The notes under the pieces were generated by a model. That model was not told the origin of the DNA and made no database searches. It saw nothing but the letters and a program-made list of their open reading frames with translations. A program made the translations under genes and the position numbers. Positions 9,447 to 51,052 of a stretch of 64,000 nucleotides of DNA are shown piece by piece. The stretch covers positions 1 through 64,000 of the IMG/VR virus record IMGVR_UViG_3300048672_000970. One strand, 5' to 3'. Every line of letters starts with the position of its first letter. Within the stretch, counting starts at the first letter, position 1. The stretch comes from a virus. Taxonomy: Duplodnaviria > Caudoviricetes.

Positions 9447-10079
9447 TTACTTCTTGTTCGCCATTTCTTTAAGGACGTTTAAGCGCGCACTGGTAGTGTA
9501 CTTTTTAATGTCCACTGAAGGTATCTTAGTGACAACGGGCGCTGCCACCGGAGTTTCTATCTGTTTCAATTTCTCCTTAACTGTCTCGTTAATCTGGTCT
9601 GTTTTTGCCATCTGATTGATGATGCTAAATCTAGGTTTTTCAACTTTTACTTCTGCTACTGGCGGTGTAACGTCCTTAACATCCTTTTTCTCCGGTTCTT
9701 CAGATTTCTTGAAATACGATTTGATACTTGGCACAGTAATCGGTTCTTCAACAGTTTCAATTTCAGGTTCAGGTTCTTTTTCAGCCACAGATGGTGTAAA
9801 AACGTTAACGGCCGTTAAATCCTGTTCCAATCTAATAGGCATCTTGACAGGCGTAACAATGTTGCCATTCGATATGATTTCAATTTCAAAGTTTGCACTT
9901 GACGCAGAAGATAAGTAAGATTCTCTTAAATCAATTTCGGCCTCCCACTCGTTTCCATTTTGCTTGGCAAGAAATGCGAGGGTTGGTTGTTCACCGACCA
10001 AACATCTGACAATCAATCCATGTTGCGAATTAGTAAAAACGGAAAACGCAACTTTGTTCGGTACGTTTGTATAAAGCAT
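9447..10079 (-). CDS. Hypothetical protein
   Basis: 210-aa ORF with a low-complexity E/K/P linker. Confidence 0.65.
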   Translation of the reverse strand: MLYTNVPNKVAFSVFTNSQHGLIVRCLVGEQPTLAFLAKQNGNEWEAEIDLRESYLSSASSANFEIEIISNGNIVTPVKMPIRLEQDLTAVNVFTPSVAEKEPEPEIETVEEPITVPSIKSYFKKSEEPEKKDVKDVTPPVAEVKVEKPRFSIINQMAKTDQINETVKEKLKQIETPVAAPVVTKIPSVDIKKYTTSARLNVLKEMANKK

Positions 10080-10082
10080 GAG

Positions 10083-10493
10083 TTATCCTTTGCTGAAGAA
10101 AATATCGGTCGTTCGAGCTTTCAACGAATTGATGTTATCGAACGAAACATGAATTGGGGTGAACACCATAGATTGCTCGGCATACTGGTCATTCAGTTTT
10201 AAGCCTGAGACGGCATACAGACCAGCCGGTGAAATAACAGACCTAGATTTGTAAGTGCGGTCTTGAAATGAGACAGTTACCAGTAACGTCTGGACGTTAT
10301 CGATTTCAAAATCCAACGGAGTAATTTCCCAATCTCTACTCTGCACCGCCATCAATGAAGATGGGCCAATACCCCCACCCGCAATGGATGATTTCTCTTT
10401 TTTAACTAAAAGAGCTGAAACGATTTTAGCGCGTCTAGGATTCTCTAACCCGTTAATCGAGTCAAAGAGAATCCTATTTCCATTTATGCTCAT
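10083..10493 (-). CDS. Hypothetical protein (late-promoter motif upstream)
   Basis: 136-aa ORF; TAAATA at 10517-10522 on the minus strand. Confidence 0.65.
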   Translation of the reverse strand: MSINGNRILFDSINGLENPRRAKIVSALLVKKEKSSIAGGGIGPSSLMAVQSRDWEITPLDFEIDNVQTLLVTVSFQDRTYKSRSVISPAGLYAVSGLKLNDQYAEQSMVFTPIHVSFDNINSLKARTTDIFFSKG

Positions 10494-10526
10494 TCGGAAA
10501 TACTGGTGTCAGCCAGTATTTACTTG

Positions 10527-13500
10527 TTAGACATAGAAATTCGGTGCCCGTGCTTTCGTGCCTATACCAGTTGATTGATAATGTAGGTCACAACTTAACA
10601 AGAATGGATTGGTAGCTGCCGACAATGTGTTACCCGTTAATGACACTCTCACCATGATGAGTGTGTCTGGTTCAATTAACGCAGTATCAATTAGAGAAGC
10701 AGAGCCACCAGCGACTGTTAGAGCCGTTTCCGCAATAAAATGCTCATATTGAGTGGTAGGAGTGGCAGTTTGTGTCACTGACGTGGTTTTAGCGGCTGCA
10801 AATGCGGCCTGTTGATGACCCTTTGCAGCAGTCACATCAAACGTCCATGTCACGCCGCCTGTGGTGACGGTTGTGCTGTTATGAGTCCAATGGGTATGGA
10901 TATAAACGACCGTCCCCGGAACGTAATCATGGTCAACGTGGAATGTAAGCCAAATTTCCTGATTGACAGTAAATTGGTATGCATAGATGTTCGTCATGAT
11001 GGCCGCCCACGTTGGGTTATTAACACCCGACCCACGAACGACAAGCTGCCCGATTAAATCACGGAACGGGAAAGTTGGCGTTGTTGTATCAACCTGAATA
11101 CCTAATCCAGAAGTTTTCTGAATGATGACGTTTGACGCAGATTTGATAGTTCCGTTAATGTCAGCGGCGTTAGCATTCACTGAAGCGAACCGTAAAGCCG
11201 TTGTACCAATATTTCCAGTGCCGGCGGTAAACGGCTGCAAATCACTTGCGACTACCGCCAAGCCAGTTGTCGTATTTGAATACAGGCGCATCGCACCACC
11301 CGCATCAAGCAATTGGATACCACCACGGAAAGTGGCGTTAGATGTGCCAGAAATGAGCCATGTTGCATTGGAAGCTGTGCCCATGATGACATTCAATGCA
11401 CCCGTAAATGTGTTGGGGGTGGTCAAAGCTCCGTATGACGCGCTGTATCCAACTGCTTGTAGTGCACCGCCGCCCGTTCCAGAAGTGAAATAATTTCTTC
11501 CCTGTGCGACATAAATTGAATATACATCCGTCATCGTTGTATTTGTACTTGCCACTGGTGTTCCGGCAATATATAACGAACTTGCGCGAGTATAAGTAGA
11601 AGCTGACGTGGCCGCAACAGTCATGCGGCCGATAGAACTCGCTGCCAAATCTGCAATAGAACCACCATTCACTTGAACAGATTTTGTCTCAATGCTCAAA
11701 TCAATACCACTGGCAGTAACTGGAATACTACCTGTCGCGGAAGATGCCATTTGGTCTAAATGTTTATTAAACACCACAGCCGTCGTGTTAAGTGTATCAG
11801 TGGATTTTGTGTATCCAGTGAACGTTCTGCCACCGTTAGCTGTACCCGCTGATACAGTAACTAACGCTCCAGCCAATTCAGCTACAGTATCCGCATCAGT
11901 GGCTCGTGTTAACACCCATGGGACGGTTGTGCTGCCAACTGTAGTCACCGTGTAAATTCCGCGATATGCGGCGCCAGCATTCAGGCCGGCAACAGTAGTG
12001 ATGTCTTTAACTAAAACTCTATCGTTAACCGTGGCAGCAGTTCCATCAGGGGTGAATGCGGCGATAGTTTGTGCAAACGTATGGCTGACCGTTGTGCCGG
12101 CTGCGATACCTGCATTAACATACCCTTGAACAGTTGCGGTAACCGTTTCTGTACTAGCCCAAGAAACAGATGAAGTGGTGCAGGCCGTAACGGTAAATGT
12201 TCCGTTATAAGTGGTAGGAGTGGCCCCTGAAATTGTGATAGACGCACCCACTGCATATGGTGCATAAGTTTTCGCTGCAAAAGTGGCAGTAGCCGTAGTT
12301 CCCGTGCCAGTAATGGCAGTGGTAATTAAATTAGTGATACTACCCTGAACAGTTGCAGTTACGGTTTCTGCACTAGCCCAAGAAACGGTGGTCGTGGTGC
12401 AGGCAGTGACGGTAAATGTTCCGTTATAAGTTGTCGGAGTGGCACCAGACACATAGATGGTTGAGCCAACAGAATATGGCGCTCCAGCTTGCGCAGCAAA
12501 CGTGGCAGTAGCTGTACCGGCTGCGCCAGTGATAGCTGTTGTTGCCAACGTCCATCCCGGAACGTTTTGCGCAATAGCTACCGTCGCACTTGAGATAGTT
12601 GGAATGAGGGTATTGGCCGGAATATTTGTAGTGGCAACTGAAACGGCTGCACCGACTTTAACACCAACTGTTGACGCAAGTGTTAAAGACAAACTGTTAA
12701 GTGTGGTGGTAACAGTCGTAGTATTGGTATTAGAATATCCAGTAAGGACGTTAGCTGAAAAGGTGCTGGGTGCAATATCAACGGTAGTGGCCCATTTCAC
12801 TAATTTATGCGCGAACAATGGCGAATGAGTTGCCATGTCAAAGGTAGACCAAGTGGGTGCTGCTGCTCCATTTGATTGCAGAATTTGAGCTGCAGTACCA
12901 GCAGCAGTTCCCGCTAATGAAGTGGCAGTATCTGCATAAGCAACACCCCATTGGGTGATGGCATTAATACTCTTTCCATCGACAGTTGCCGCATCGCCAT
13001 CAATGGACGTGATACCCGTTAACGCAATAGCCCCCGAAGCTCTATTCAGTGCAATGGACGTGGTGCCAATGAAAACAGATGAATTACCTAAGACCGCCGC
13101 AGGTATGGTGCCTGATAAGTTACCCGCCGTTAAGGACGTTAACGCTGCTCCAGACCCTGAGAATGATGATGCAAACACTGCCCCACCGACACCAAGGCCG
13201 CCTGCAATTGTTAAAGCGCCAGTGGATGTGGACGTTGATGCGGTAGCTAAACTAATTGCAACTGACGTAGAACTAATGGTGGCACGCGATGCACCAGCAG
13301 CATAAAGAATCAGATTTCCAGATGCGCCGGAAGAAATGACGAGTGCATTACTTTCAGCCACATTCGTTGTACTTCGCATCAGAATTGATGCAGTGTTTGT
13401 CCCATTGCTTAGAATCAATCTAGCATCTGAACCTGTACCGGTATCCGGGTTAGTAATTGATAATGACGTACTTCCGACAGTAGTGGCAGAAATACTACTT

Positions 13501-14222
13501 GAAGCTCCCGCATAAATTGCTCCACCGACACCCAATCCACCAGTAATTGTTAATGCACCCGTCGATGTACTAGACGAAGCGGTGTTATTGGTGATAGAAA
13601 CTGCACCAGAAGACGTTAATCCAGTCAACGTCCCTACGGACGTGATACTTGATAAATTATTGGTATGAATCAATTTATACCAAGTACCCCAAGTCGTACT
13701 AGAACCCGACCGATGCCAGATATTGTCATTATCGGTGAAAGCTAATTGATGCGCTTTGCCACCCGACCAATCAGTGCCGGAGCCATATTGACGGATAGAC
13801 ATGACTCCATTAAATGAGCCACCATCCGCCAAAGAATTTGTCGTATTGCTTTTGAAATCTGCCCAAATACCGGGCGAGGCGGTAGTTTCAGGAGTATCAA
13901 CCACTGCACGAGTATCAGACACAACCATTTTTGTACTTGACCCGGCTAGTCCGTCAATTGAAATACCTGTGAGTGATTGTGCGCCGCTGGCTCTGTCAAG
14001 TGTGATGGCGGTTGTACCAAGGTTAACGGTCGTGGACAGCGCGCCGAAATATCCTTTTCTGAATACCAACGTCGATGACCCAATATCTTGTGTCCCGGTG
14101 GCAGCCGGTAACAAATGTTTCGACGCAGAGATATTGAAAGCGTTGCCAATTGTCAAATCAGCAACGTTGAAAATATTTTGATATGCTTCAAATCCGGCTT
14201 GTGTAAAAGATGCTAGTGCCAT
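10527..14222 (-). CDS. Tail fibre / receptor-binding protein (1231 aa)
   Basis: T/A/G/S-rich fibre repeats (ASTSTSTGALTIAGGLGVGG), a knob-like WGTWYKL domain, RVLVKD...WVLTRATDAD fibre motif. Confidence 0.85.
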   Translation of the reverse strand: MALASFTQAGFEAYQNIFNVADLTIGNAFNISASKHLLPAATGTQDIGSSTLVFRKGYFGALSTTVNLGTTAITLDRASGAQSLTGISIDGLAGSSTKMVVSDTRAVVDTPETTASPGIWADFKSNTTNSLADGGSFNGVMSIRQYGSGTDWSGGKAHQLAFTDNDNIWHRSGSSTTWGTWYKLIHTNNLSSITSVGTLTGLTSSGAVSITNNTASSSTSTGALTITGGLGVGGAIYAGASSSISATTVGSTSLSITNPDTGTGSDARLILSNGTNTASILMRSTTNVAESNALVISSGASGNLILYAAGASRATISSTSVAISLATASTSTSTGALTIAGGLGVGGAVFASSFSGSGAALTSLTAGNLSGTIPAAVLGNSSVFIGTTSIALNRASGAIALTGITSIDGDAATVDGKSINAITQWGVAYADTATSLAGTAAGTAAQILQSNGAAAPTWSTFDMATHSPLFAHKLVKWATTVDIAPSTFSANVLTGYSNTNTTTVTTTLNSLSLTLASTVGVKVGAAVSVATTNIPANTLIPTISSATVAIAQNVPGWTLATTAITGAAGTATATFAAQAGAPYSVGSTIYVSGATPTTYNGTFTVTACTTTTVSWASAETVTATVQGSITNLITTAITGTGTTATATFAAKTYAPYAVGASITISGATPTTYNGTFTVTACTTSSVSWASTETVTATVQGYVNAGIAAGTTVSHTFAQTIAAFTPDGTAATVNDRVLVKDITTVAGLNAGAAYRGIYTVTTVGSTTVPWVLTRATDADTVAELAGALVTVSAGTANGGRTFTGYTKSTDTLNTTAVVFNKHLDQMASSATGSIPVTASGIDLSIETKSVQVNGGSIADLAASSIGRMTVAATSASTYTRASSLYIAGTPVASTNTTMTDVYSIYVAQGRNYFTSGTGGGALQAVGYSASYGALTTPNTFTGALNVIMGTASNATWLISGTSNATFRGGIQLLDAGGAMRLYSNTTTGLAVVASDLQPFTAGTGNIGTTALRFASVNANAADINGTIKSASNVIIQKTSGLGIQVDTTTPTFPFRDLIGQLVVRGSGVNNPTWAAIMTNIYAYQFTVNQEIWLTFHVDHDYVPGTVVYIHTHWTHNSTTVTTGGVTWTFDVTAAKGHQQAAFAAAKTTSVTQTATPTTQYEHFIAETALTVAGGSASLIDTALIEPDTLIMVRVSLTGNTLSAATNPFLLSCDLHYQSTGIGTKARAPNFYV
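12122..12540 (-). repeat. Tandem ~73-codon intragenic duplication in fibre 1
   Basis: SGATPTTYNGTFTVTACTT..VSWAS.ETVTATVQG occurs twice with a 219-nt period. Confidence 0.9.
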
Positions 14223-14251
14223 TTCAATACCCTTTGAATGTTATTTATTGC

Positions 14252-17200
14252 TCACAGCTTATTGAAATATGCTGACAAGTACCAATCCGGAAAATCAGAT
14301 GCTCCACCACCAATTTCAAGGATAGCCGTTGCTGAAAATGGAATACCGTAAATGTTTCCGTTAGGGGCCAGCACACCGCCAATATATTTGTCAGCAGTGC
14401 CTAAACTACCAAACGTTGAAGCAGTATCAGTATTCGGGTCGATCACTAATACTGATGTACTGGTTCTAGGCAATCCATAAATTTTTCCGTTAGGTGCCAG
14501 TACGGCACCACACCATTTTGCTGTTCCAGCTAATGAACCCTTGGTAGTTGCTGTCCCTGCTACCGGGTCAATAACTAGAAAATCGGTGGCTGAATAAGGC
14601 ACTGCGTAAATTTTTCCGTTAGGAGCCAATGCGCATCCCATATATTTTGTCGCTGTGGCCGAGAGAGTGCCAATAGTTGTGTAAGTGTCTGTTGACGGGT
14701 CTACCACTAACACAGTGGTAGCACTTGCTGGCGCGAAATAAATTTTGCCATTTAGTGCCAATGCACCCGTTTGATATGAACTTAAACCCGAACCAATCGT
14801 ATAAGTGGTTTGTGTTGCCGGGTCGATGACTAAAATATTTCCACTAGACCCCGGCGCGCAATAGATTTTCCCGTTTGGAGCTAACACCCCTCCCCACCAT
14901 TTGATACTGCCAGTGGCGCCCAATGAACCAAATTGAGTAATTACATTGGTTGCTGGGTCTAGTTCAGCAACTGTCCCGACAAAAGACGGAATGGCATAAA
15001 TTTTTCCATTTTGCCCTAACACACCGCCAACATACGCACTAGCCCCTTGTGCGGCACCAATAGATACTGTAACTCCGGTATCTGGGTCAAAACTGCGGAA
15101 CGGCACCGAGCCATACGGAATCATGTAGATTTTTCCGTTTGGCGCTAATACACCCCCGGTGTATTTTGATGAGCCTGTAATCGCACCTGAACCCGAACGA
15201 ATGGTAGTAACGGTGAACCCTGAAGTTCCTGCTGAAGAATTGGTAAAATCATTCGGCATTGAGCTAACAACCGTGATGCTACCCGCACCATCAACTCCCG
15301 TTGAAGAAAACGCTGTATCGCCTGTTAACGCCGTTTGAATGGCTGCTGCAACTTGAATGGCAGTAGCGCCCGTTGTGATAGATGCCAGCACATAACGTCC
15401 GGCGCCTGACGCCGGTTGAGTGCCAGCACCAGAAACTTGAAACCAGACATCAATAATTTGCTCAACCCCAGAAGGGTTAATTGCACCAGCAGTTCCTTGA
15501 GGGCCATACAACCTGAAATATGTACCTGCTAATGAACCCGCCACATCTGCCACGCAAGTTATTTTAGTGGTTTCATAAGTCGCCGCTGCAAAACTAAGTG
15601 AAGCTTCTTGAGCAGGTAATGAAAACAGGCTGGCGACAGAGTTTTTAACCGAGCTTCTTCCAGCGACAGTAACGACTGGTGCAGTAATTGAGGTGTCATT
15701 AGTGATAGCACCCGTGGTTGCAATTCCGGCTGAATTGACGGTCACACGGTCTACAACCGTGTTGGCAGTAGCGCCTGAACCAGCAGTAACACCGGCTTGA
15801 ATAACTACCGCACCACTGTTTCCAGTACCTTTTCCTAAACCTGGACGAATAGTTAAATTAACACCGGCTGTATCATTGGTGCTAGTATTGGAACCTCTGA
15901 TAATCGTAGCAGATGCGGATGCAACTGAATCCCCATTACCAAAAATAATGTCTCCAGCAGCATTGATACGATGCCGCTCGGTTAACGTTCCTGAAGTATT
16001 GGCAACGTTCACCACGTAAGATGCATTATTGGCCGTTGCACTGGCAGTTTCTTGCAAACCATCAATTCTAACTACTTCCACTGCACTTGCTGACCCTGGA
16101 GCAGCAATGACAAACCCTGTTCCTCGGCCGCTGCCGCCATTACCGGAAGAACTAATGCGCTGTGCAAGCGCAACGCCAGCAATGCCGGGCGTTTCAACAT
16201 GTAATCTGTAAGTGCTGCTTCCTGTAACAGAACCGAAATAAACATTTCCACCTGTGGTTAGCGTTCCGTTAATGAATGCATTACCGCCTGAACCAATACC
16301 ACCCGATACAACTAGCGCGCCAGTGGTTGTACTGGTTGAAGCTGTGGTATCGGTAATTGATACTGCGCCAGAAGAAGTTAAACCAGTTAACGTCCCTAAA
16401 GAAGTAATAGCCGTTTGTGCTGCACCAGTGACCGTTGCTGCACTGCCAGTAACACTGATTGACCAAGTGCCGGAAGCTCCAGTTCCAGTAAGAGTTGGGG
16501 AGTAAGTGTTATACGAAGCCGACGTTAAAATTTCTTTCCATGCTGTCCAGTTGTCGGTAGTGTCACGAAGTCCCCGATACCACAATGAATTGGAAGTATG
16601 CCATGACCCAGCGATTTCAATACTACCACCCGTTCCGCGCCCAAACCCTAACGTCGCCCAATAAGCTACTGGCGTGGTATCACCTAAAGAAGCATTGGTA
16701 GTATTTTGAGTATAAACACCTGCCGCTGGCGAATTCCGGCCGGTGCTGGCAGCGATGTTACTTCCAAGAGATGCAGTAACAGTGTTAACTTGAGTATTAG
16801 TTAAAGTGGAAGTGAACGTATAGGTAGTTAAATCATTTACTAACGAAATAGCCCAACCCGTATTCCACGATGCCACGCCAAACGTACTTTGCGCACCAGA
16901 CCAGCGAACAACCTCCACCCGTGGATATTGCCATAATGAGCCAGTAGTTGCATTTTCATCGCCAATGACAATCACGCATTTTGTGCCATCATGCCCGAAT
17001 CTCACTTTATAGTTTTGAGTAACATCCGGTTGTCCAACGATTCTGGCGCTAGTGTTAAACCATTGAGTAGACGGCTGATAGTTGTATCCAGAGCAATACA
17101 AATCAAATCCTTGCCCCGCTGCATATAAAAACACTCTTATATGCATATCCATCATGGTAGTAGTCCATGATTGCGGTAGAGTGATAACAAAAGCCCCGCG

Positions 17201-20200
17201 CAAGTTCGCGGCGGCATTAGAATATTTTGCTCCACCCGGAGTGAAAATGGTAGTCGTCGCGGCGGATATAGAGGCATAGCCGTTGGTTGCAACGATGGCA
17301 TCACTCACACCCACGCCACCCGCGACGACCAGCGCACCTGTGGTAGCAGACGTGGAAGCCGTTGTGGCCGCCAGTGATAATTGTCCAGCGGCAGTTAGCG
17401 TGGCATAAGTAGTACCATTATTCGTACTGAACGTTAGATAACCACCCGTCGTCCCTGCGCCCCGGAAGAAACTGATACCAGCATTCAATGAGCCAGAGTA
17501 TTCAAGGCCAATTCTTGCAGCTTCAGTGCTAACGGCGGTTCCGGCACCATTTCGGATATTCAATCTAAAGTTCGTATCACCCTGGAATCGGGTCAGTGAT
17601 GCGGTTAAAGCACTTGCGGTACTATTAGCCGTATTGTATGTTCCGGCAAATAGGTCGCCGGCAATACCAACCCCGCCCGCAACCGTTAACGCACCAGTTG
17701 TGGTATTGGTGGATGCTGTCGCATTGGTGATGTTGACCACTCCAGAAGATGTCAATCCCGTTAACGTCCCTAAAGAAGTAATTGCAGTTTGCGCCGCGCC
17801 AGTGACTGTCGCCGCACTTCCATCAATTGAAATTCCGGTCAATGATTGAGCACCACTTGCGCGATTGAGGGTAATACTCGTCGTGCCTAAGTTAAATGAA
17901 TCAGCCGTGTTTACCGCATCAGTAATACCGTATCCAGAAATGGTAGTTGGTTTATTTCCGACATCTGCCCAATTAGTTGAAACCAGTGGGCCAAATTCTA
18001 CATCTTCAATAGTTCCAGAAGACAGCGTAAAAATGGATGAGTCAAAATAAAGCGAGGCAGTGACCGTGGCTGCAACTGTTCTAACAATCGTACCGTTTTT
18101 GTAATATTTGACATTCACACCGTCATACGTGATACTGATAATGTCACCTACGGCAACAGTGGTCAAGTTTGAATAGGCCGTTCCAGATTCATACACACTA
18201 AATGAGGCACTGTTAATATAAACCGCGTAATCAATCCCTGTGTAATTTGAATCGGTTGCCGGGTCGGTATTCAATCCGACCATATAAGCGGTGGAAAGAT
18301 TCGCAATTCTGAATCTAACAAATGAACCACCTGCATATCCAACTGTTGAATATGCACCTGCATCCCATGTACTGTTCACCCCGCCAGTTTTTCTAATTTT
18401 GTTTCCGTTGATAGTGACGTTCGTGCCGACTAATCCTAACGCATTGCCAATACCAGAAGGTGAAGCGAAAAGTTTAGTGTAATCAGATTCGGAGCCGTCC
18501 ATTACTTCAAATTTTGGTTTCCCCCATTGAGCGGTACAAATTTGAGTAGCGGCCGTTGGTTTATGCAGGCCAGAACGCATTCTAAATTGGGTGACGGCTG
18601 CATTCCAGTTAAAATCGGTTAAAGTAGAAACTACCCCTGGCGCTGCATTATCACCAGTATCCATATCAATCAGTTTAGCCTGATTGGTAAAACCAGTAAC
18701 ACCTGTTGGATAAATGTGCCCAACCAGAAGATACCATTTATTCTGAATTAGGTTGGCGATGTTTACCGCAAGGAAATACGCATTTGAGTTAGTAGTCGAG
18801 GTGTTAAGTGTATCAACTACATTGGCAACCGCAGTAGCACCAATATAAATTACATGCCCATCAGTATTGGCACTGGTGCGGCGAATTGGCATGATAAACC
18901 GATAAGTCCGGTCTGGATAAACTTTAACCAGTTTTGAATATGGGCCGGCAAACCAGTTCAGATTACCAATAATACTATCACCCTGCCATACAACCGAGTA
19001 TTCTCCGTTTGGCATGACAGTATAAGCGGTGGAGTTAGTACCTTGAATACCATACGGGTTCCAGCCGTCTAATGAACTTCCCCACCGTGGAGCTTCCATC
19101 AAGTTATTTTTGACGGAATCATCGTACAGGGCAGTGCCATTATCATCACGGACATTACTTAATGGTAATCCACCAGTAGCTGAAAGCGTGCCACCGATGT
19201 TAACGTTGCCCGCAATACCTACCCCGCCCGAAATAATAACGGCACCAGTCGTGGTGGTAGTTGATGCGGTAGTGCTAGTAACCGAAAGTGAACCATCAGT
19301 ACCAGAGATTTTTGCACGTATAGTTGATGAACCGCCGGCGCCAAAAAGTAAATCTTGCCCTGCACCCGCAGCCACAATACCAAGTGGCGCAGAAGCATTT
19401 TGATACACCACCCCAATTGTTCCAGCCGTGTGACCAAAAATTGTTCCGCTAGATTGCCCAATATATAAATCCGCGCCGGTTGAACTGCCAAATAGCCGTT
19501 GATAAAATTTCGTCAGGCCGGCAGTGCCATCCCCAATCTGAAGTGCTTCCGTTACCGATGTCGTTTTTACCCCAACCCCTGTGGCATTAACGGTAATACC
19601 CCTCGCCCATGAAATAGCACCATCGAGTGCTCCAGTAACCGCCGTATCTAAAGTAATCACGCCGTTATAAGACTCAATTTTAGTCGCTAGGCCGGCTGCT
19701 CGATAATTCCACGTGGCAGTACCAGGGTCATTTCCGGTTGTGTAAGCATTGGTGGCTAAAAACAAATCACCCACGGCGCCATTTGTTCCTGCACCAATTG
19801 AACCCCGCGATTGAAAGTCAATAACTTTTGCTGCAGCATTCCAAGAAGTATGCGGGATGATTCCTAGGCCAATATGCCCGTTGGCATCTTTAACAAACTG
19901 ATTGGAATCTAAATTAACAACACCAGTTCCGGTAATCCCACCCGTGTAGGCCGGTGCGGAGGCATTAAGTTTCAGATTCAACGCCGTCTGGGTGGCGGTA
20001 GAAATTGGCTTATTAACGTCACTCGTGTTATCAACATTGCCCAATCCGACATCACTGGACGTTAACGTAATTACGCCCGTTCTACCGGAAACTGAAGTAA
20101 CTGCATCAGTGAAAGAGATTACCCCCGTAGTGGAATTATAGGCAAGGGAACCCGAAACAGAAATAGCATTTCTAGCACGAGTATTAGTGAAATATAAATT

Positions 20201-45589: not shown

Positions 45590-46042
45590 TTACGGAATCA
45601 CTTTGAAATATTGTAGGCGCCATTTTTGTGTGTTGGAATCAAAACAGATGGGACAAAATTGCTTAAGAGTGCCACACGAGCCTTTTATATTATCATCAGG
45701 TATAAACAATGTAATACCATCCCCATTAAACATTTTGCCTCCCTGGATTTCAACCTGAGTTAAAAGCGCATCAACTGCAGCTTCCACCGAAATAAACTTC
45801 AGCGCATCTTTTTGATTGTTGGTTAGTTCAGCCGAGAAACGGGCTGGATTAGAGGCATCGTCCCCTGTTTTAATGAATCCAGAATAAGTTAGGTAAGAAA
45901 ATTCGATAAGAGCCATAAAGTTTTCCTTCGCCAGAGTGACGCATCCCGGCATTAGCTTTTGTCCATTACCCGTGCACGATAAGGATAGAGATTTTACACC
46001 CCTACCTGAATATGTAACAAACGCGTTTTCGATTTTAGTCAC
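45590..46042 (-). CDS. Hypothetical protein
   Basis: 150 aa; ATGA overlap with the upstream gene; internal xxTYSG motif occurs twice. Confidence 0.55.
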   Translation of the reverse strand: MTKIENAFVTYSGRGVKSLSLSCTGNGQKLMPGCVTLAKENFMALIEFSYLTYSGFIKTGDDASNPARFSAELTNNQKDALKFISVEAAVDALLTQVEIQGGKMFNGDGITLFIPDDNIKGSCGTLKQFCPICFDSNTQKWRLQYFKVIP

Positions 46043-46458
46043 CCAAACACTTCATCATAGTCCACCGTCAGCCCATTAGCGCATACGATGTTACGTTCAA
46101 CGATGTGCCGAAATTCTTCATGACCTGCTAGAAGTCTATCACGGCATAGCTGGACGTTATCGGGCATGATGTCAATCCCGTAAATGGTTGATAGTGCTTG
46201 TTCCAGCGTAGAGCCGTTTTCCAGCTTCCTGATGAGGATTTCTGAAAGGAACTGCCCATCCCCGCAGGCGTTGTCAATAAACGTCTTAGAAGGGTCTTTG
46301 AAGACTTCTGGGTTGATATGGTCAAGCACTTCTTGAACGAGTGGAGTGGGGGTGAAAACTTCAGCAGTAGCTTTTACCCGATTTGCATCACGTTCGATAC
46401 CTGACATATATTCCCGGTTTCGGGCATGATTGATGATATGAGTTAGTTCAGGATTCAT
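46039..46458 (-). CDS. Half N6-adenine methyltransferase (SAM-binding motifs X, I, II, III only)
   Basis: AEVFTP, FIDNACGDGQF, IYGIDI, NIVCAN, then stop with no NPPY/F; start moved to MNPEL at 46458. Confidence 0.85.
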   Translation of the reverse strand: MNPELTHIINHARNREYMSGIERDANRVKATAEVFTPTPLVQEVLDHINPEVFKDPSKTFIDNACGDGQFLSEILIRKLENGSTLEQALSTIYGIDIMPDNVQLCRDRLLAGHEEFRHIVERNIVCANGLTVDYDEVFG

Positions 46459-47458
46459 TTGACTTTCCATTCTTGAGTTCTTTCTTAATAGCTTCCACGA
46501 GTTTTTGGCAAAAGGTATTCCCAATAAATTGAGTAAATGGGAATACTTCAACCGCCGGGCCATCATATAGCCGCTCATTTAGCAAATAGATATATCCGCT
46601 TGTCATCGATGCATCTGATGGGTCAGATGCCGCTTTCATTTTCCCAAATTCCTCTTTAACAAAAAGAGGCGTGCTACCGGGAATATCATGCATCATTACG
46701 TCATATTCGGCGGATTGCAAAGAGCATTTAACGTAATAGGTTGAGCGAATATTTCTATACTTCATCCTAAGTTCGTCAAACCCCACGTTGGTAGTCATAA
46801 TAGCATCAATTTTGTAGTGCGAATTATATTTCAGCGGGGCGGAAGGGGATAAAAAACTACTTACTGTATATTCAGTTCGGCTTACCCATTGTTCAAACAG
46901 ACCCGTATGGGTGACTTCGGAAACGAAAGTTACTTCTCCCGGCGTTTCAGTGCTAGCCGTACTGCCTTTAATTACACATTCATCTTTGGTTAGATTTTGC
47001 TTCGGACACACAAAATTCAACAGGCCCATTTTGTTGGCAAAGAAAAATACGGGAACTTCTGTAACGGATGCATCAATGTAACGTGCCACACGGCCTTCAC
47101 CATAAAGTCTATAAGCCGCACTTTTCTTATTTCGTGGATCACCCTTGCCACATACGGCATTCTTAAGAGAGTCCAAAGACGAAGTGGGATTAATGACGAT
47201 TCTACCAGTTGTTGTAATTACGGTGTTATCACTACACACGAGATTAAAAGGGGAGGTGAACACAACCACCCCGTTTTTGTTTTCACTTTTTGTCATTACA
47301 TCTACTGACCCATTTTTATTAATGGCTACTGAGTCAACGTCGAGGAAAAATTTCCTATAGTCACCCCCATAACCATTGGTAGCATAAGCCACCCAATCAG
47401 CAGCATTTGCCCCAACACCCATTACGGCCAATAACCCAGCAATCAAAGTCTTCTTCAT
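46448..47458 (-). CDS. Secreted/periplasmic protein (336 aa)
   Basis: MKKTLIAGLLAVMGVGANA|ADW signal peptide; overlaps both neighbours. Confidence 0.7.
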   Translation of the reverse strand: MKKTLIAGLLAVMGVGANAADWVAYATNGYGGDYRKFFLDVDSVAINKNGSVDVMTKSENKNGVVVFTSPFNLVCSDNTVITTTGRIVINPTSSLDSLKNAVCGKGDPRNKKSAAYRLYGEGRVARYIDASVTEVPVFFFANKMGLLNFVCPKQNLTKDECVIKGSTASTETPGEVTFVSEVTHTGLFEQWVSRTEYTVSSFLSPSAPLKYNSHYKIDAIMTTNVGFDELRMKYRNIRSTYYVKCSLQSAEYDVMMHDIPGSTPLFVKEEFGKMKAASDPSDASMTSGYIYLLNERLYDGPAVEVFPFTQFIGNTFCQKLVEAIKKELKNGKSNES

Positions 47459-48138
47459 TCTTCCACCCCTTCTCGCAGTTGATAAGCTTCAAAGTCAATT
47501 TCACAACTGGCAACCGAGATAGGTGCCAGACCATTTTTCTCACGGAGCATGTTAAGAAAGCCGAAGTTATCTTTCACCTTCTTCTTAATCATATCTCCGT
47601 TGACAACTTCCACGCAGCCAAAACACATTTCATTCAGATTGAAATGGATGCCCTTGGCGGTGGTGAACAAAATCTTTCTAGCCTTATAGGCTACTCGCTC
47701 AACCAGCGCACGCATACTCGCATGTGTGATAAAATTGGTAATACCGTATTCATCATTTGCTGTAAATTCATATGAAGACTTTTCAACGTACTTCATCTGA
47801 ATAAAAACGGGGGCGCCGGGATGGCCGGAAATCTTGCCATCATGATAAGGCTTCAGTGTAGTAGTCTTCCCCTCTGCATCAATGCCATAATCCTTAGCGG
47901 TATCACACAGCTCTTTTGAGAGGGCTACTCCATGCAGGTTGAAATCCTTACCAAAATAATTAAGGAACTCTTTTCCAAACCATTCGAGGAAATCACCCTT
48001 AAAGACTTCAGGATGGTTTTTATACGCATCCTGAATCGGCTTAGAACGAGCTTGTTTCTTCACACGGTCAATGATATCTGAAAAGTCAGGCTGCTGGAGC
48101 AGTTGAGCAAAATCAGCATACTTTTCAAATCTGGTCAT
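47455..48138 (-). CDS. Mrr-like PD-(D/E)xK restriction endonuclease-fold protein
   Basis: KGDFLE helix, DYGID and FIQMKY (D...QxK variant). Confidence 0.72.
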   Translation of the reverse strand: MTRFEKYADFAQLLQQPDFSDIIDRVKKQARSKPIQDAYKNHPEVFKGDFLEWFGKEFLNYFGKDFNLHGVALSKELCDTAKDYGIDAEGKTTTLKPYHDGKISGHPGAPVFIQMKYVEKSSYEFTANDEYGITNFITHASMRALVERVAYKARKILFTTAKGIHFNLNEMCFGCVEVVNGDMIKKKVKDNFGFLNMLREKNGLAPISVASCEIDFEAYQLREGVEE

Positions 48139-48152
48139 GATACCCTCTGTTG

Positions 48153-49478
48153 TTACGGTGCCTTACGTTGCTTTTTCGCCTTACCGGGTGCGTTTGCTTC
48201 AATGTATGCAATTTCTTCCGGCGTCAGCTTGAGAGCATTGTAAATCAGGTTTGGCGAAAAGTCAACGGCTAAGTCAATCTTTGGGATGTGGGCCAGCAGA
48301 GTTCGGTTGGTGAATCCGGCCGTTTTCGTTTGGTCAAGAAGCCATGCCATGATGTCAGATGTGAGGTATTCCATAATATGCGTACCTTCTAATGGCGTAT
48401 CCACCAAAATGGCGGCGGCGTGCTCGGTATATCCCCACTCGCCATCCATATCAAAAACCATTTTGTCGGACACCGTTCCTCTGGCGGCGTAAAGGGGGAA
48501 CACAATTTTCCGTTTGAACTGATTAGGATGGGGCTTAGAGCCATATCGAATGCTCGCGCCGTGCACATTCGGATAATGAAATACATTATCATCAACTTTC
48601 GACATATGCGGCCTGCGGGCATCATTATTCGAGTCAAACAACACTTCCATGTTTTCACGAGTTCTATCATTGAATACTTTATTCATAATAGAAAGACTGA
48701 TAGTGTCAACCGTTTCAGGCATAACTGTAATATTATTTAAATTGATAAAAACCGTATCTTTACCATTCACCGCAGTGGTTAAATGTTCCCGCGAAGGAAG
48801 TTCTTTTTTAACAATGAACCAAGAAACAGTCGTACCAACGGTAGGGAAATATTCACGGGCATTTAAGCAAATGTACTCGGCGCTGTATTTGTTTATCACC
48901 TCTTTAAACACTTTTGTTTTGGAATCGGCCCAAGCATTTGGCGTAATCATTGCCAGATGGCCGGACGGCTTGACAAGTTTCATACCTGCCAGGACAAATT
49001 CCGTCCACGCCTTCTTACTGCTGGCTGCGTCTTTATCTTGAAACGGCGGGTTGCCGCACACCACATCAAATCTCATATATCTCCAATCAATGTTGCCAGT
49101 GGAAATGCAAGCATACTTGATGCCATGCATTTCACACAGTTGACGGATTTTATCATGATAGTCGTTGGTGGCGAGCGTAACGGATGCGTTATTTTGTAGT
49201 TTCAGCCACAGCGCCCATTCAAACGTCTCAAAGACCAACACGGATTGATTTCCACGGGGCAGATACGTCTGAATGTTTTCAATCAACTGATACGCAGTAA
49301 ACGGTTGGGTGAAGGCATCTTCACGGTCGGATGGTGCCGCATAAATGTCAGAAATTAAAAAATCGGCAATGGCACTCAGAATTTCAGAATTGGCAGTGTG
49401 TTCACAGTCAGTGAAATTTTCCGTGTTCAGCATGTCGTTCCAATCAAAGTTATTTGGTATGGGTGAATTATGGTACAC
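48153..49478 (-). CDS. Eco57I-like (gamma-class) N6-adenine methyltransferase with TRD; motif I degenerate
   Basis: FDVVCGNPPF motif IV, LVKPSGHLAMITP, YFPTVGT; VLVFETFE where FxGxG is expected. Confidence 0.8.
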   Translation of the reverse strand: MYHNSPIPNNFDWNDMLNTENFTDCEHTANSEILSAIADFLISDIYAAPSDREDAFTQPFTAYQLIENIQTYLPRGNQSVLVFETFEWALWLKLQNNASVTLATNDYHDKIRQLCEMHGIKYACISTGNIDWRYMRFDVVCGNPPFQDKDAASSKKAWTEFVLAGMKLVKPSGHLAMITPNAWADSKTKVFKEVINKYSAEYICLNAREYFPTVGTTVSWFIVKKELPSREHLTTAVNGKDTVFINLNNITVMPETVDTISLSIMNKVFNDRTRENMEVLFDSNNDARRPHMSKVDDNVFHYPNVHGASIRYGSKPHPNQFKRKIVFPLYAARGTVSDKMVFDMDGEWGYTEHAAAILVDTPLEGTHIMEYLTSDIMAWLLDQTKTAGFTNRTLLAHIPKIDLAVDFSPNLIYNALKLTPEEIAYIEANAPGKAKKQRKAP

Positions 49479-49501
49479 CCATTTAACGCCGTCAAGCTCT
49501 G

Positions 49502-50941
49502 TTACACAATCTTTGCGCGCAACATTTGAAGATATCGGGCATGTGACTTCTTAACGGCGGTCAGTTCCTTTTCTTCACGTTCTTGTTCTTCCACTTCAAT
49601 TTGAAGACCAGGGTCAATGGCCTTACGAACCGTCATCAAGTCTTGATATCCAGTAGCGTCAACAAGAGCTTGCAGCACTTGTTTTGCATCCGGGCCGGTC
49701 AGTTCATGGTGGTCAATGACCGGGATGATCACCAAACATTCTCGCTTCTGCCTAATGTCAAAATTGGCGGCGCGACTGAACTTGCCAGGGTCGGGGAGAT
49801 AGTCGGGGCGAGTCAAATCACCAATGTAAGGGCGGGCGCATCGACCAACTGATTGAATCAGCTTTTCACGAGTCTTTTCACTCATGAACAGAACTGCAGA
49901 CAAAGTGGAAATGTCAATCCCTTCTGCCAAAGTGTCATAATGCGCAACAATACAGTTTCGCTGATTTTCCTGAATGTCCTTCAGCAGAGCTTCCCGCGAC
50001 TGGAAAAAGTTACCGTCTTTCATCTGATTCTTGGAAGATACGGTATTAATGTTAAAACATCCGGCCACTTCCGGCAGTTCAGCAACAATACGGTCATAGA
50101 TTTTCCGCACGTTAGTTTGAATGGTGGTAATGTCAACTTGCACGTCACGAGTACAAACCAGCATCTGTGTATGCGGCATACCATTGAGCCGATTTCGCTT
50201 ATACGATTCAACAAACCCGGCGACCAGAATATCAACAATAGTTGCCGAAAGTTCGACATTCTTTCGATTGGCATGCAGTTCAATAATGGCCGGAGGGACA
50301 ATGTAGCCATCCTTGTAAAGTTCATACGGAAGCACTTCAGCAAGCACGCGTCCATACATCGATTCATTCATCGCCGAATGCATGTCAACTTTTTCACCAT
50401 TCTCATATACCACCGGGGTTGCGGTATAAAGCAAACACTTCGTTTTGAAAGACAAATTCATGGTGTAGTCCCTGAATTGCTTTTGCGCCAGATAATGTCC
50501 CTCATCAGCAATGACCAAATCAAATTCAAAATCATTGATGTGGGTGAAACTGTCATACGACGCATACGTGATATGCACATTACCCACATCCATAGCGGAA
50601 TTGATACATTCCGTCAAAATGGAAGCATTGGTAGTATTGATTTCCATCCGCATGTAACCTTCAGGGTGAGCGCCAGAATTGAAAGAATTCTTCACGACTT
50701 CAATTCCGCAAATCCATTCAGCACCGTTACGCACTTGTTGCTGACTGAGCGCAATGCGCGGCGTGACAACACAGAAATTACGCATACCAAGTTCAACTGC
50801 ATGCTCGATTGCCTTGTTGAACAGGACAGTCTTCCCCGCGCCAGTAGGCGCATAAATTTGCCCAAGCATTTCATCATTTTCGATAAACGCCTTGGTGGCG
50901 TTGTGAATCTTTTCTTGGTACGGGCGCAGGGTCTTGGACAT
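49502..50941 (-). CDS. SF2 helicase/translocase (type III Res / ISP-like)
   Basis: LRPYQ, APTGAGKT, DEGH, TATP, AEGIDI, QSVGR. Confidence 0.88.
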   Translation of the reverse strand: MSKTLRPYQEKIHNATKAFIENDEMLGQIYAPTGAGKTVLFNKAIEHAVELGMRNFCVVTPRIALSQQQVRNGAEWICGIEVVKNSFNSGAHPEGYMRMEINTTNASILTECINSAMDVGNVHITYASYDSFTHINDFEFDLVIADEGHYLAQKQFRDYTMNLSFKTKCLLYTATPVVYENGEKVDMHSAMNESMYGRVLAEVLPYELYKDGYIVPPAIIELHANRKNVELSATIVDILVAGFVESYKRNRLNGMPHTQMLVCTRDVQVDITTIQTNVRKIYDRIVAELPEVAGCFNINTVSSKNQMKDGNFFQSREALLKDIQENQRNCIVAHYDTLAEGIDISTLSAVLFMSEKTREKLIQSVGRCARPYIGDLTRPDYLPDPGKFSRAANFDIRQKRECLVIIPVIDHHELTGPDAKQVLQALVDATGYQDLMTVRKAIDPGLQIEVEEQEREEKELTAVKKSHARYLQMLRAKIV

Positions 50942-50978: not shown

Positions 50979-51007
50979 ATTATGCACAAAAGAAAAACCG
51001 GCGTCAA
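50979..51007 (-). promoter_or_regulatory. sigma70-type promoter of the helicase/MTase operon
   Basis: TTGACG-17 nt-CATAAT; the -35 box lies inside a hairpin at 50995-51017. Confidence 0.6.
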
Positions 51008-51052
51008 GCGCCGGTTTAGGTTGTTACACTTTGTTACCGCATTCACATACTT

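Follow-up and report, generated by a model that had tools for sequence, protein, structure and literature searches.

Introduction

Type ISP restriction-modification (R-M) enzymes such as LlaGI and LlaBIII unite an Mrr nuclease, a superfamily 2 (SF2) ATPase, a coupler, a methyltransferase (MTase) and a target recognition domain (TRD) in a single chain (PMC4666363). The MTase is a gamma-type N6-adenine enzyme with an NPPF/Y motif, and the TRD is C-terminal (PMC4666363, PMC3553950). The present analysis concerns five minus-strand genes at positions 46039-50941 of a 64-kb window, which is the first 64 kb of the 200,363-bp virus record IMGVR_UViG_3300048672_000970 in IMG/VR (estimated completeness of the record, 56%). 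With moderate confidence, this operon is read as a phage-borne, multi-chain relative of the type ISP enzymes, comprising an SF2 translocase, an Mrr-like nuclease and an N6-adenine MTase of two subunits, in which a protein of 139 amino acids (aa) would form the cofactor half and the N-terminal half (N-half) of a 441-aa protein would be vestigial. The pairing is a variant of two known kinds, the split or permuted amino-MTase and the type ISP-like module.

Gamma-class MTases (Eco57I, M.TaqI, CamA, M.BseCI) are single chains with the motif order X-I-II-III-IV-TRD and a glycine-bearing motif I, and beta-class amino-MTases (M.MboIIA, M.RsrI, M.PvuII, CcrM, EcoP15I Mod) have the order IV-VIII, TRD, X, I-III. 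M.AquI and M.EcoHK31I are naturally split cytosine-5 (C5) MTases. Fragments of the C5-MTases M.SssI and M.MpeI have been split or permuted in the laboratory (PMC3404938, PMC5944983), and the break between strands beta1 and beta4 is a known topological switch point of the MTase fold (PMC7544214). Models of permutation by duplication and of fission and fusion predict intermediates of this sort (PMC3320104), and MTase permutation has so far been addressed mainly by engineered C5-MTases and sequence surveys (PMC3320104, PMC5944983). Full-text literature searches for split, two-subunit or permuted phage adenine MTases returned engineered and C5 examples as well as general reviews, and no account of the pairing described here.

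The two methyltransferase genes of the operon

The gene content of the window, including topoisomerase II subunits, helicases, baseplate and lysis proteins, indicates a large tailed phage, and no DNA relatives of the region were found among 50,697 deposited phage records at megablast and blastn sensitivity. The initial annotation had described a coupled operon, and all five open reading frames (ORFs) lie where it placed them, head to tail with short gaps or overlaps only. The helicase stop is separated by 23 nt from the GTG start of the large MTase gene, which is followed after 14 nt by a 227-aa ORF; the latter overlaps a 336-aa ORF by 4 nt, and the 336-aa ORF in turn overlaps the small ORF by 11 nt.

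The large protein (48153-49478, minus strand; 441 aa, or 426 aa from the start M16, ATG at 49433, chosen by the gene caller) is assigned as the catalytic and TRD subunit of a gamma-type N6-adenine MTase on the basis of its Eco57I match, its AlphaFold2 (AF2) model, Foldseek and hhalign. It scores 40.3 bits with Pfam Eco57I (PF07669), above the cut-off of 25.3; the match covers only residues 132-200, around the GNPPF of motif IV (residues 142-146), which corresponds to the NPPF/Y signature of the class; the TRD is C-terminal. A glycine-bearing motif I upstream of motif IV, as expected in the same chain of a gamma-class enzyme, is absent. Residues 55-95 of the N-half align to motifs X-I of the small-protein family (hhalign 88.5%, E 3e-6), and at motif I the large protein reads FETFEWA where the small protein reads NACGDGQF, that is, without glycine and two residues shorter. 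The initial annotation had claimed an MTase with NPPF, a TRD and a decayed motif I. The first two elements and the missing glycine are borne out, whereas random decay is not, since the glycine-less motif I is a conserved variant common to many relatives.

The small subunit (46039-46458, minus strand) comprises 139 aa if translation starts at M41 and 143 aa if it starts at M37 (46470); the full ORF spans 46039-46578, and its conserved part begins at M41 (46458). As had been noticed at the outset, it carries motifs X, I, II and III alone: FTP (X), DNACGDGQF (I), YGID (II) and the strand of motif III, directly followed by the stop. It matches residues 10-102 of M.BseCI, a gamma-class enzyme, together with the motif X-I region of type I M subunits. 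A search of a collection of 5.8 billion proteins yielded 4299 relatives of 76-244 aa, the best 120 of the 4299 being 66-95% identical. Most of these have no database name; the few that do are called 'N-6 DNA methylase', 'type I restriction-modification system DNA methylase subunit' or 'hypothetical protein'. The family shows dozens of invariant columns, many of them beyond the classical motifs, with strong conservation in an N-terminal H.R.R.YMSG.ERD segment and in the C-terminal tail. In a sibling strain (contig L101) the small protein is 95% identical, and 30 codons differ synonymously only compared with 7 non-synonymous differences. This pattern in the aligned genes shows purifying selection on the small gene, and with a ratio of 30:7 its interpretation as a pseudogene fragment was rejected.

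The two proteins also cover successive parts of single MTase profiles in PADLOC-DB. In the MTase_II profile PDLC03273, which has 432 positions, the match of the small protein extends over 20-86 and that of the large protein over 116-401; in the mad2 profile the two extend over 268-351 and 357-449, respectively. The PADLOC part of the proposed DefenseFinder, PADLOC and REBASE check returned matches to generic profiles only (MTase_II, mad2, PbeA and a Cas3-like helicase); no system-defining profile matched any of the genes in PADLOC-DB, and for the nuclease and the secreted protein there were no profile matches at all.

Pairing across related loci

With an alignment of the small protein, 80 IMG/VR loci were collected (207 confirmed matches in all), and profiles built for the small protein and for the catalytic/TRD half were run against their ORFs. 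The pairing recurs across these related viral loci, in keeping with the co-occurrence in other genomes on which the initial annotation had made its proposal depend. In loci with upstream DNA, the conserved domain of the small protein mostly starts between -28 and +6 nt from the stop of a gene that ends in a catalytic/TRD half. Exceptions are L031, L033, L069, L070 and L094, and wider gaps occur in L043 and L092. The neighbour that abuts the small gene in L094 is a 366-aa ORF lacking a profile match, which a helicase and an Mrr-like gene precede, and in L033 and L069/L070 a small signal-peptide gene lies upstream of it. In L070 (region 9989-18293), the small gene is also accompanied by an array of five catalytic-half genes 2.7-8 kb downstream of it, at least two of which start at motif IV.

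Of 21 contigs obtained from 185,579 species genomes, 18 show the same adjacency; in Curtobacterium ammoniigenes NBRC 101786 and Geodermatophilus sp. LHW52908 the partner begins at motif IV. A diverged branch on cellular contigs from Actinobacteria, these two among them, and others (L116, L117, L118, L120, L122, L123, L124) consists of a catalytic half of about 300 aa that starts at motif IV, directly followed by a small subunit of 150-200 aa. This branch is possibly prophage-borne.

The partners of the small protein differ mainly in their N-halves. Among 60 non-redundant pairs, in which a few assignments are uncertain, 23 partners have a canonical motif I (DPAxGGGQF), 11 a reduced motif I of the xGHG type and three another G-x-G form. 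A further 15 are glycine-less like the partner in the window (FNVEFV, YTIEWA), and in eight the N-half is absent, the protein starting at MKFDVVVGNPPY, which is motif IV. Many of the relatives of the large MTase that were listed are likewise only 285-310 aa long, with their first residue aligning at query residue 135, at motif IV. One of these short relatives (P0123) is followed by a 185-aa N6_Mtase gene. The protein P0124 is on a contig of 1.1 kb with no neighbour genes.

The small proteins of partners without an N-half are up to 87% identical to those of partners with one, and 60-71% identical to that of the window. Since closely similar small proteins go with either kind of partner, a common structural role in all of them is the simplest reading. 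The tree of the 60 small proteins is mostly unresolved, with interspersed partner classes and 16 changes between them, of which the well-supported branches force 2-4 per class, and because of this poor resolution no order of events can be claimed. Across pairs, the small protein has a median identity of 65%, compared with 30% in the catalytic core, 23% in the TRD and 21% in the N-half of the partner, values that are biased since the loci were chosen via the small protein. An unbiased contrast is given by the searches with single proteins. The large MTase had no word-sharing relative in the word-indexed protein search (self-match only), no locus in viral_contigs by peptide patterns, and 1783 relatives in an exhaustive HMMER search, the best at 35-38% identity, compared with the 4299 relatives of the small protein.

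These data bear on the possibility that the 441-aa MTase works on its own through a cofactor site of non-canonical form, the small gene being the remainder of a partial tandem duplication or the partner of some other protein. The motif I of M.TaqI is also atypical, which provides a parallel, and two other genes separate the pair in the window. Such self-sufficiency is nevertheless judged very improbable, as the small gene is under strong purifying selection and its adjacency to a partner is kept over about 70 loci. Furthermore, the motif I loop of the large protein is truncated, the acidic residue after beta2 is unconserved in the glycine-less class, and the 200-kb record, with an estimated completeness of only 56%, yielded no second catalytic-half gene.

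A fused and permuted form

In Aeromonas phage Aeh1, the two halves occur in one chain. Protein gp090 (415 aa; PHROG 11371) opens at motif IV with MHFDYMIANPPY; the catalytic half and the conserved TRD end come next, and the small domain, with ERD, FFTP and EPSCGDG, occupies residues 281-392. The small protein matches 29 Aeromonas phage records.

An AF2 model of an identical IMG/VR copy of gp090 reached a pTM of 0.77, with a C-terminal segment mostly at a pLDDT of at least 90. This model was compared with 48,161 PDB representatives by VIA-align, and eleven beta-class amino-MTases ranked first. The match to M.MboIIA (Z 10.1, rmsd 3.4, 150 aligned residues) spans model residues 1-371, those to M.RsrI and EcoP15I Mod span 1-405 and 1-398, and CcrM and M.PvuII are also among the beta-class matches. 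M.TaqI, by comparison, matches residues 1-232 only. Foldseek TM scores for the permuted model were low because Foldseek aligns sequentially. The catalytic half and the small domain of gp090 are thus modelled as a complete MTase with permuted (beta) topology, and the fact that the beta-class matches extend across both parts argues that the two belong to one enzyme.

Another origin considered for the arrangement in the window is that an insertion split one gene. This was rejected, as the catalytic half comes first and the N-half gene after it, also in loci where the two genes abut. In Aeh1, the gene that follows gp090 (L095:3917-4408) encodes a protein with a HAD_SAK_2 domain (Pfam 5e-23).

Proposed assembly of the two chains

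In the preferred reading of the operon, the 441-aa chain would carry the catalytic NPPF half and the DNA-recognition domain, and the 139-aa chain would be the conserved half that binds S-adenosylmethionine, with motifs X, I, II and III. The small chain is envisaged to assemble beside beta4 of the catalytic half, in the way in which it does so within the chain of the fused Aeh1 form, and would there contribute strands beta1-beta3 and the cofactor site. The glycine-less N-half of the large chain may then be the vestige of a once complete gamma-class enzyme. Under this scheme, selection on the N-half that the partner itself carries would be relaxed or altered, which fits the spectrum from canonical to absent N-halves. 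We infer a physical assembly of the two chains in this phage, with the cofactor site supplied by the small chain, and a joint action of the four proteins on DNA.

Several observations weigh against this scheme. The AF2 model of the large MTase (pLDDT 85, pTM 0.82) shows a complete MTase fold, beta1-beta7, with a C-terminal recognition domain, and its best Foldseek matches are CamA, M.TaqI and M.BseCI, with the C-terminal domain included. Beta1 (79-83) leads through a two-residue turn into helix A (86-94), and the whole Rossmann sheet is confidently modelled from the large chain alone, its own beta1-beta3 having a pLDDT of about 90. With these strands in place, there is no vacant site for the small chain unless the N-half moves. 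Motif X (TP), a hydrophobic beta1 and a glutamate are conserved in the glycine-less N-halves of relatives, which suggests a retained role rather than free decay. The 23 of 60 partners with a canonical motif I keep the small gene as well, so that the repair of a defect cannot be its universal purpose. The window is itself an outlier, with 1.7 kb occupied by the nuclease and a passenger gene between the two MTase genes, and only a minority of the MTase-small pairs have the helicase and nuclease nearby.

The multimer prediction proposed for the two MTase ORFs was also run, and lends the pairing weak support without giving an interface. The pair scored 0.46 (runs 0.46, 0.52 and 0.00) and the best control 0.00; agreement between the runs amounts to at least 21% of contacts, and the partner pLDDT is at least 60. 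Of 80 solved complexes, 58 reached the mark applied, as did 2 of 110 mismatched pairs, and scores of up to 0.60 that pass it were obtained for only 7 of the 80 solved complexes and for both of the passing mismatches.

The initial annotation had proposed that the two MTase halves complement each other in trans. That the two ORFs belong together is supported by strong comparative evidence, namely their adjacency, the partners without an N-half and the Aeh1 fusion. Simple complementation is not structurally obvious here, since the 441-aa protein is modelled with a complete Rossmann fold of its own.

For this reason, an accessory role of the small protein stays a live rival. The small protein may be a regulatory cofactor-binding subunit, such as a sensor, an activator or a pseudo-dimer partner, that docks on a complete MTase without replacing its N-half, by analogy with the inactive partners in MettL3-MettL14 and MTA1-MTA9. 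In its favour are, along with the complete model, the conserved N-half and the weak complex support, the canonical motif I kept in many partners and the conservation of the small protein in the H.R.R.YMSG.ERD segment and the C-terminal tail; beta-class MTases are known to divide labour between their subunits (PMC7544214). It is considered unlikely all the same. A half sheet of the form beta1-alphaA-beta2-alphaB-beta3 is unlikely to be stable alone, the small domain is required as a structural half in the Aeh1 fusion and by partners beginning at motif IV, and nearly identical small proteins serve both kinds of partner.

Beyond the operon itself, it is conceivable, and put forward more tentatively than the two-subunit reading, that the constant and conserved cofactor-binding subunit is a shared socket for interchangeable catalytic and recognition subunits, whether single, in arrays of up to five or fused to a helicase. 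The family would then be a modular platform for methylation or restriction with multiple specificities, and would preserve every stage of a circular permutation from gamma to beta topology. The states seen are a complete gamma enzyme with an additional N-half gene, a decayed N-half, a lost N-half and a re-fused permuted chain (Aeh1 gp090), in line with the intermediates that the permutation-by-duplication and fission-fusion models lead one to expect (PMC3320104).

At L005:1514-8552, and also in L006, L007, L008 and L017, five tandem Eco57I-type MTase genes of 378-396 aa are followed by a single small gene. The N-terminal regions of about 100 residues in this array, located on a 72-kb contig, are near-identical and the C-terminal parts differ, which looks like a cassette array of specificities.

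Relation to type ISP and other known systems

The remaining enzymatic genes of the operon correspond to parts of a type ISP enzyme. The SF2 helicase-like ATPase claimed earlier was recovered (479 aa; 49502-50941, minus strand), with Pfam ResIII (2e-16), DEAD (7e-12) and Helicase_C as well as the phrog_16 DNA helicase (4e-29), and by sequence it matches no PDB entries other than LlaGI and LlaBIII, both of type ISP (E 2e-4). The 227-aa protein (47455-48138, minus strand) has no direct Pfam match, and no solved sequence relative was found for its alignment. It aligns, however, with a Pfam Mrr_cat_2 protein of the related locus L002 (E 1e-8) and with cyanophage gp052, and D83, G85, D87, Q114 and K116 are invariant in this alignment. 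It is assigned as a nuclease of the PD-(D/E)xK type, in agreement with the Mrr-like nuclease that had been proposed. In the sibling contig, the nuclease is 78% identical.

Linkage of the four functions is not confined to the window. In an iterated search, the helicase, Mrr-like, MTase and small genes were found to co-occur as separate genes in about 10 non-redundant loci, and the cultured Synechococcus phage ACG-2014f has them in a row as gp051 (small), gp052 (nuclease-like), gp053 (MTase) and gp054 (helicase). About 12 of the 60 partners are ResIII helicase-MTase fusions of 1140-1236 aa, which are followed by the small gene. In the fusions L027, L018, L054, L077 and L089, the first 130 residues or so show the pattern GIYI ... 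G.L.FG.G ... R, which has no Pfam match and is reminiscent of GIY-YIG rather than Mrr-like.

On paper, the operon in the window may therefore be said to work like a disassembled type ISP enzyme, as its Mrr-like nuclease, its SF2 ATPase and its gamma-type MTase with a TRD correspond to those of LlaGI and LlaBIII. It differs from them in being made of four separate chains, with the MTase itself in two pieces, and in having a conserved small subunit for which LlaGI has no counterpart. In addition, the module is phage-borne instead of being a plasmid or chromosomal defence, and the fused phage relatives begin with a putative GIY-YIG-like segment and have no detectable Mrr segment. Since it is not a single polypeptide and has an extra subunit, the operon is not filed as a member of type ISP. 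It does not agree with type III R-M either, as the nuclease is a separate gene, not the C-terminal part of a Res chain with the helicase, and the MTase is Eco57I/gamma-type by sequence rather than a beta-class Mod. The initial annotation had suggested an enzyme rebuilt along type ISP or type III lines, of which the type ISP likeness is supported by the helicase-MTase fusions and the LlaGI and LlaBIII matches, whereas neither the single chain of type ISP nor the features of type III were found.

Among the MTases themselves, the large protein resembles the gamma class in its Eco57I match and fold; unlike in those enzymes, motifs X and I-III are in a separate gene after the TRD gene. This gene order follows that of the beta-class amino-MTases, from which the family differs in being gamma-type by sequence (Eco57I, NPPF/Y and not DPPY) and in having a junction that is mostly a gene boundary. 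With the split C5-MTases it shares an MTase made from two polypeptides, but those are cytosine-5 enzymes cut elsewhere, whereas the amino-MTase of the window is cut between motifs III and IV. The family further differs from them in that a constant half is paired with very variable catalytic/TRD halves, over thousands of metagenomic proteins.

Role of the module

The role of the module may lie in self-protection, in attack on host DNA or in the exclusion of rival phages. One alternative is that it does not serve restriction of foreign DNA, the MTase marking phage DNA against host restriction and the helicase and nuclease acting in the degradation of host DNA or in phage DNA metabolism. Several features of the family are compatible with this. 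Near most MTase-small pairs, neither a helicase nor a nuclease was detected, and arrays in which one small gene accompanies up to five catalytic/TRD genes resemble a kit for protective methylation with several specificities. The close family is also overwhelmingly viral, with 207 IMG/VR matches compared with about 11 close cellular relatives in the 185,579 species genomes, mostly on short metagenome-bin contigs. However, the recurrent helicase-MTase fusion and the linkage to an Mrr-like nuclease are hallmarks of type ISP enzymes, in which methylation and cleavage are coupled (PMC4666363), and a role outside restriction is regarded as rather unlikely.

If the small protein is the cofactor half, 4299 metagenomic proteins, which are mostly unnamed or in some cases called 'N-6 DNA methylase', would be obligate subunits. 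In this case, the activity of their partners could not be judged from the partners' own motifs, which would affect the prediction of phage methylomes and R-M systems. The family is also a natural test bed for the splitting, shuffling and circular permutation of Rossmann-fold MTases. Moreover, it points to a type ISP-like machine in giant phages and in cultured T4-like cyanophages, whose isolates make its role testable.

Passenger gene and probable operon boundary

The 336-aa protein (46448-47458, minus strand) has an N-terminal Sec-type signal, MKKTLIAGLLAVMGVGANA, as read from the sequence. In agreement with the initial annotation it is a candidate for secretion, but it is not part of the system, since it is absent from related loci and broken in the sibling strain. 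No relative was found in any of the 93 other loci searched, the gene is split across three frames in the sibling contig (L101:391-1399), and searches of the Atlas gave weak, sub-threshold Adhesin_E-like leads only. From this comparison of loci, it is a passenger inserted in the operon. Secreted or membrane passenger genes recur just upstream of the small gene in the few loci in which it is detached from its partner, at 46448-47458 in the window, at L101:391-1399 and at L033:9391-9888.

At the 5' end of the operon, a site at 50979-51017 (minus strand) combines a strong terminator-like hairpin, with a 9-bp stem and a T run, with an overlapping promoter-like sequence, TTGACG-17-CATAAT, both found by consensus scans only. 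Lying 5' of the helicase start, it is a probable operon boundary. At the other end, a 150-aa ORF at 45590-46042 that has no family match runs across the stop of the small gene with a 4-nt overlap (GTGA), and this ORF is missing from the sibling contig.

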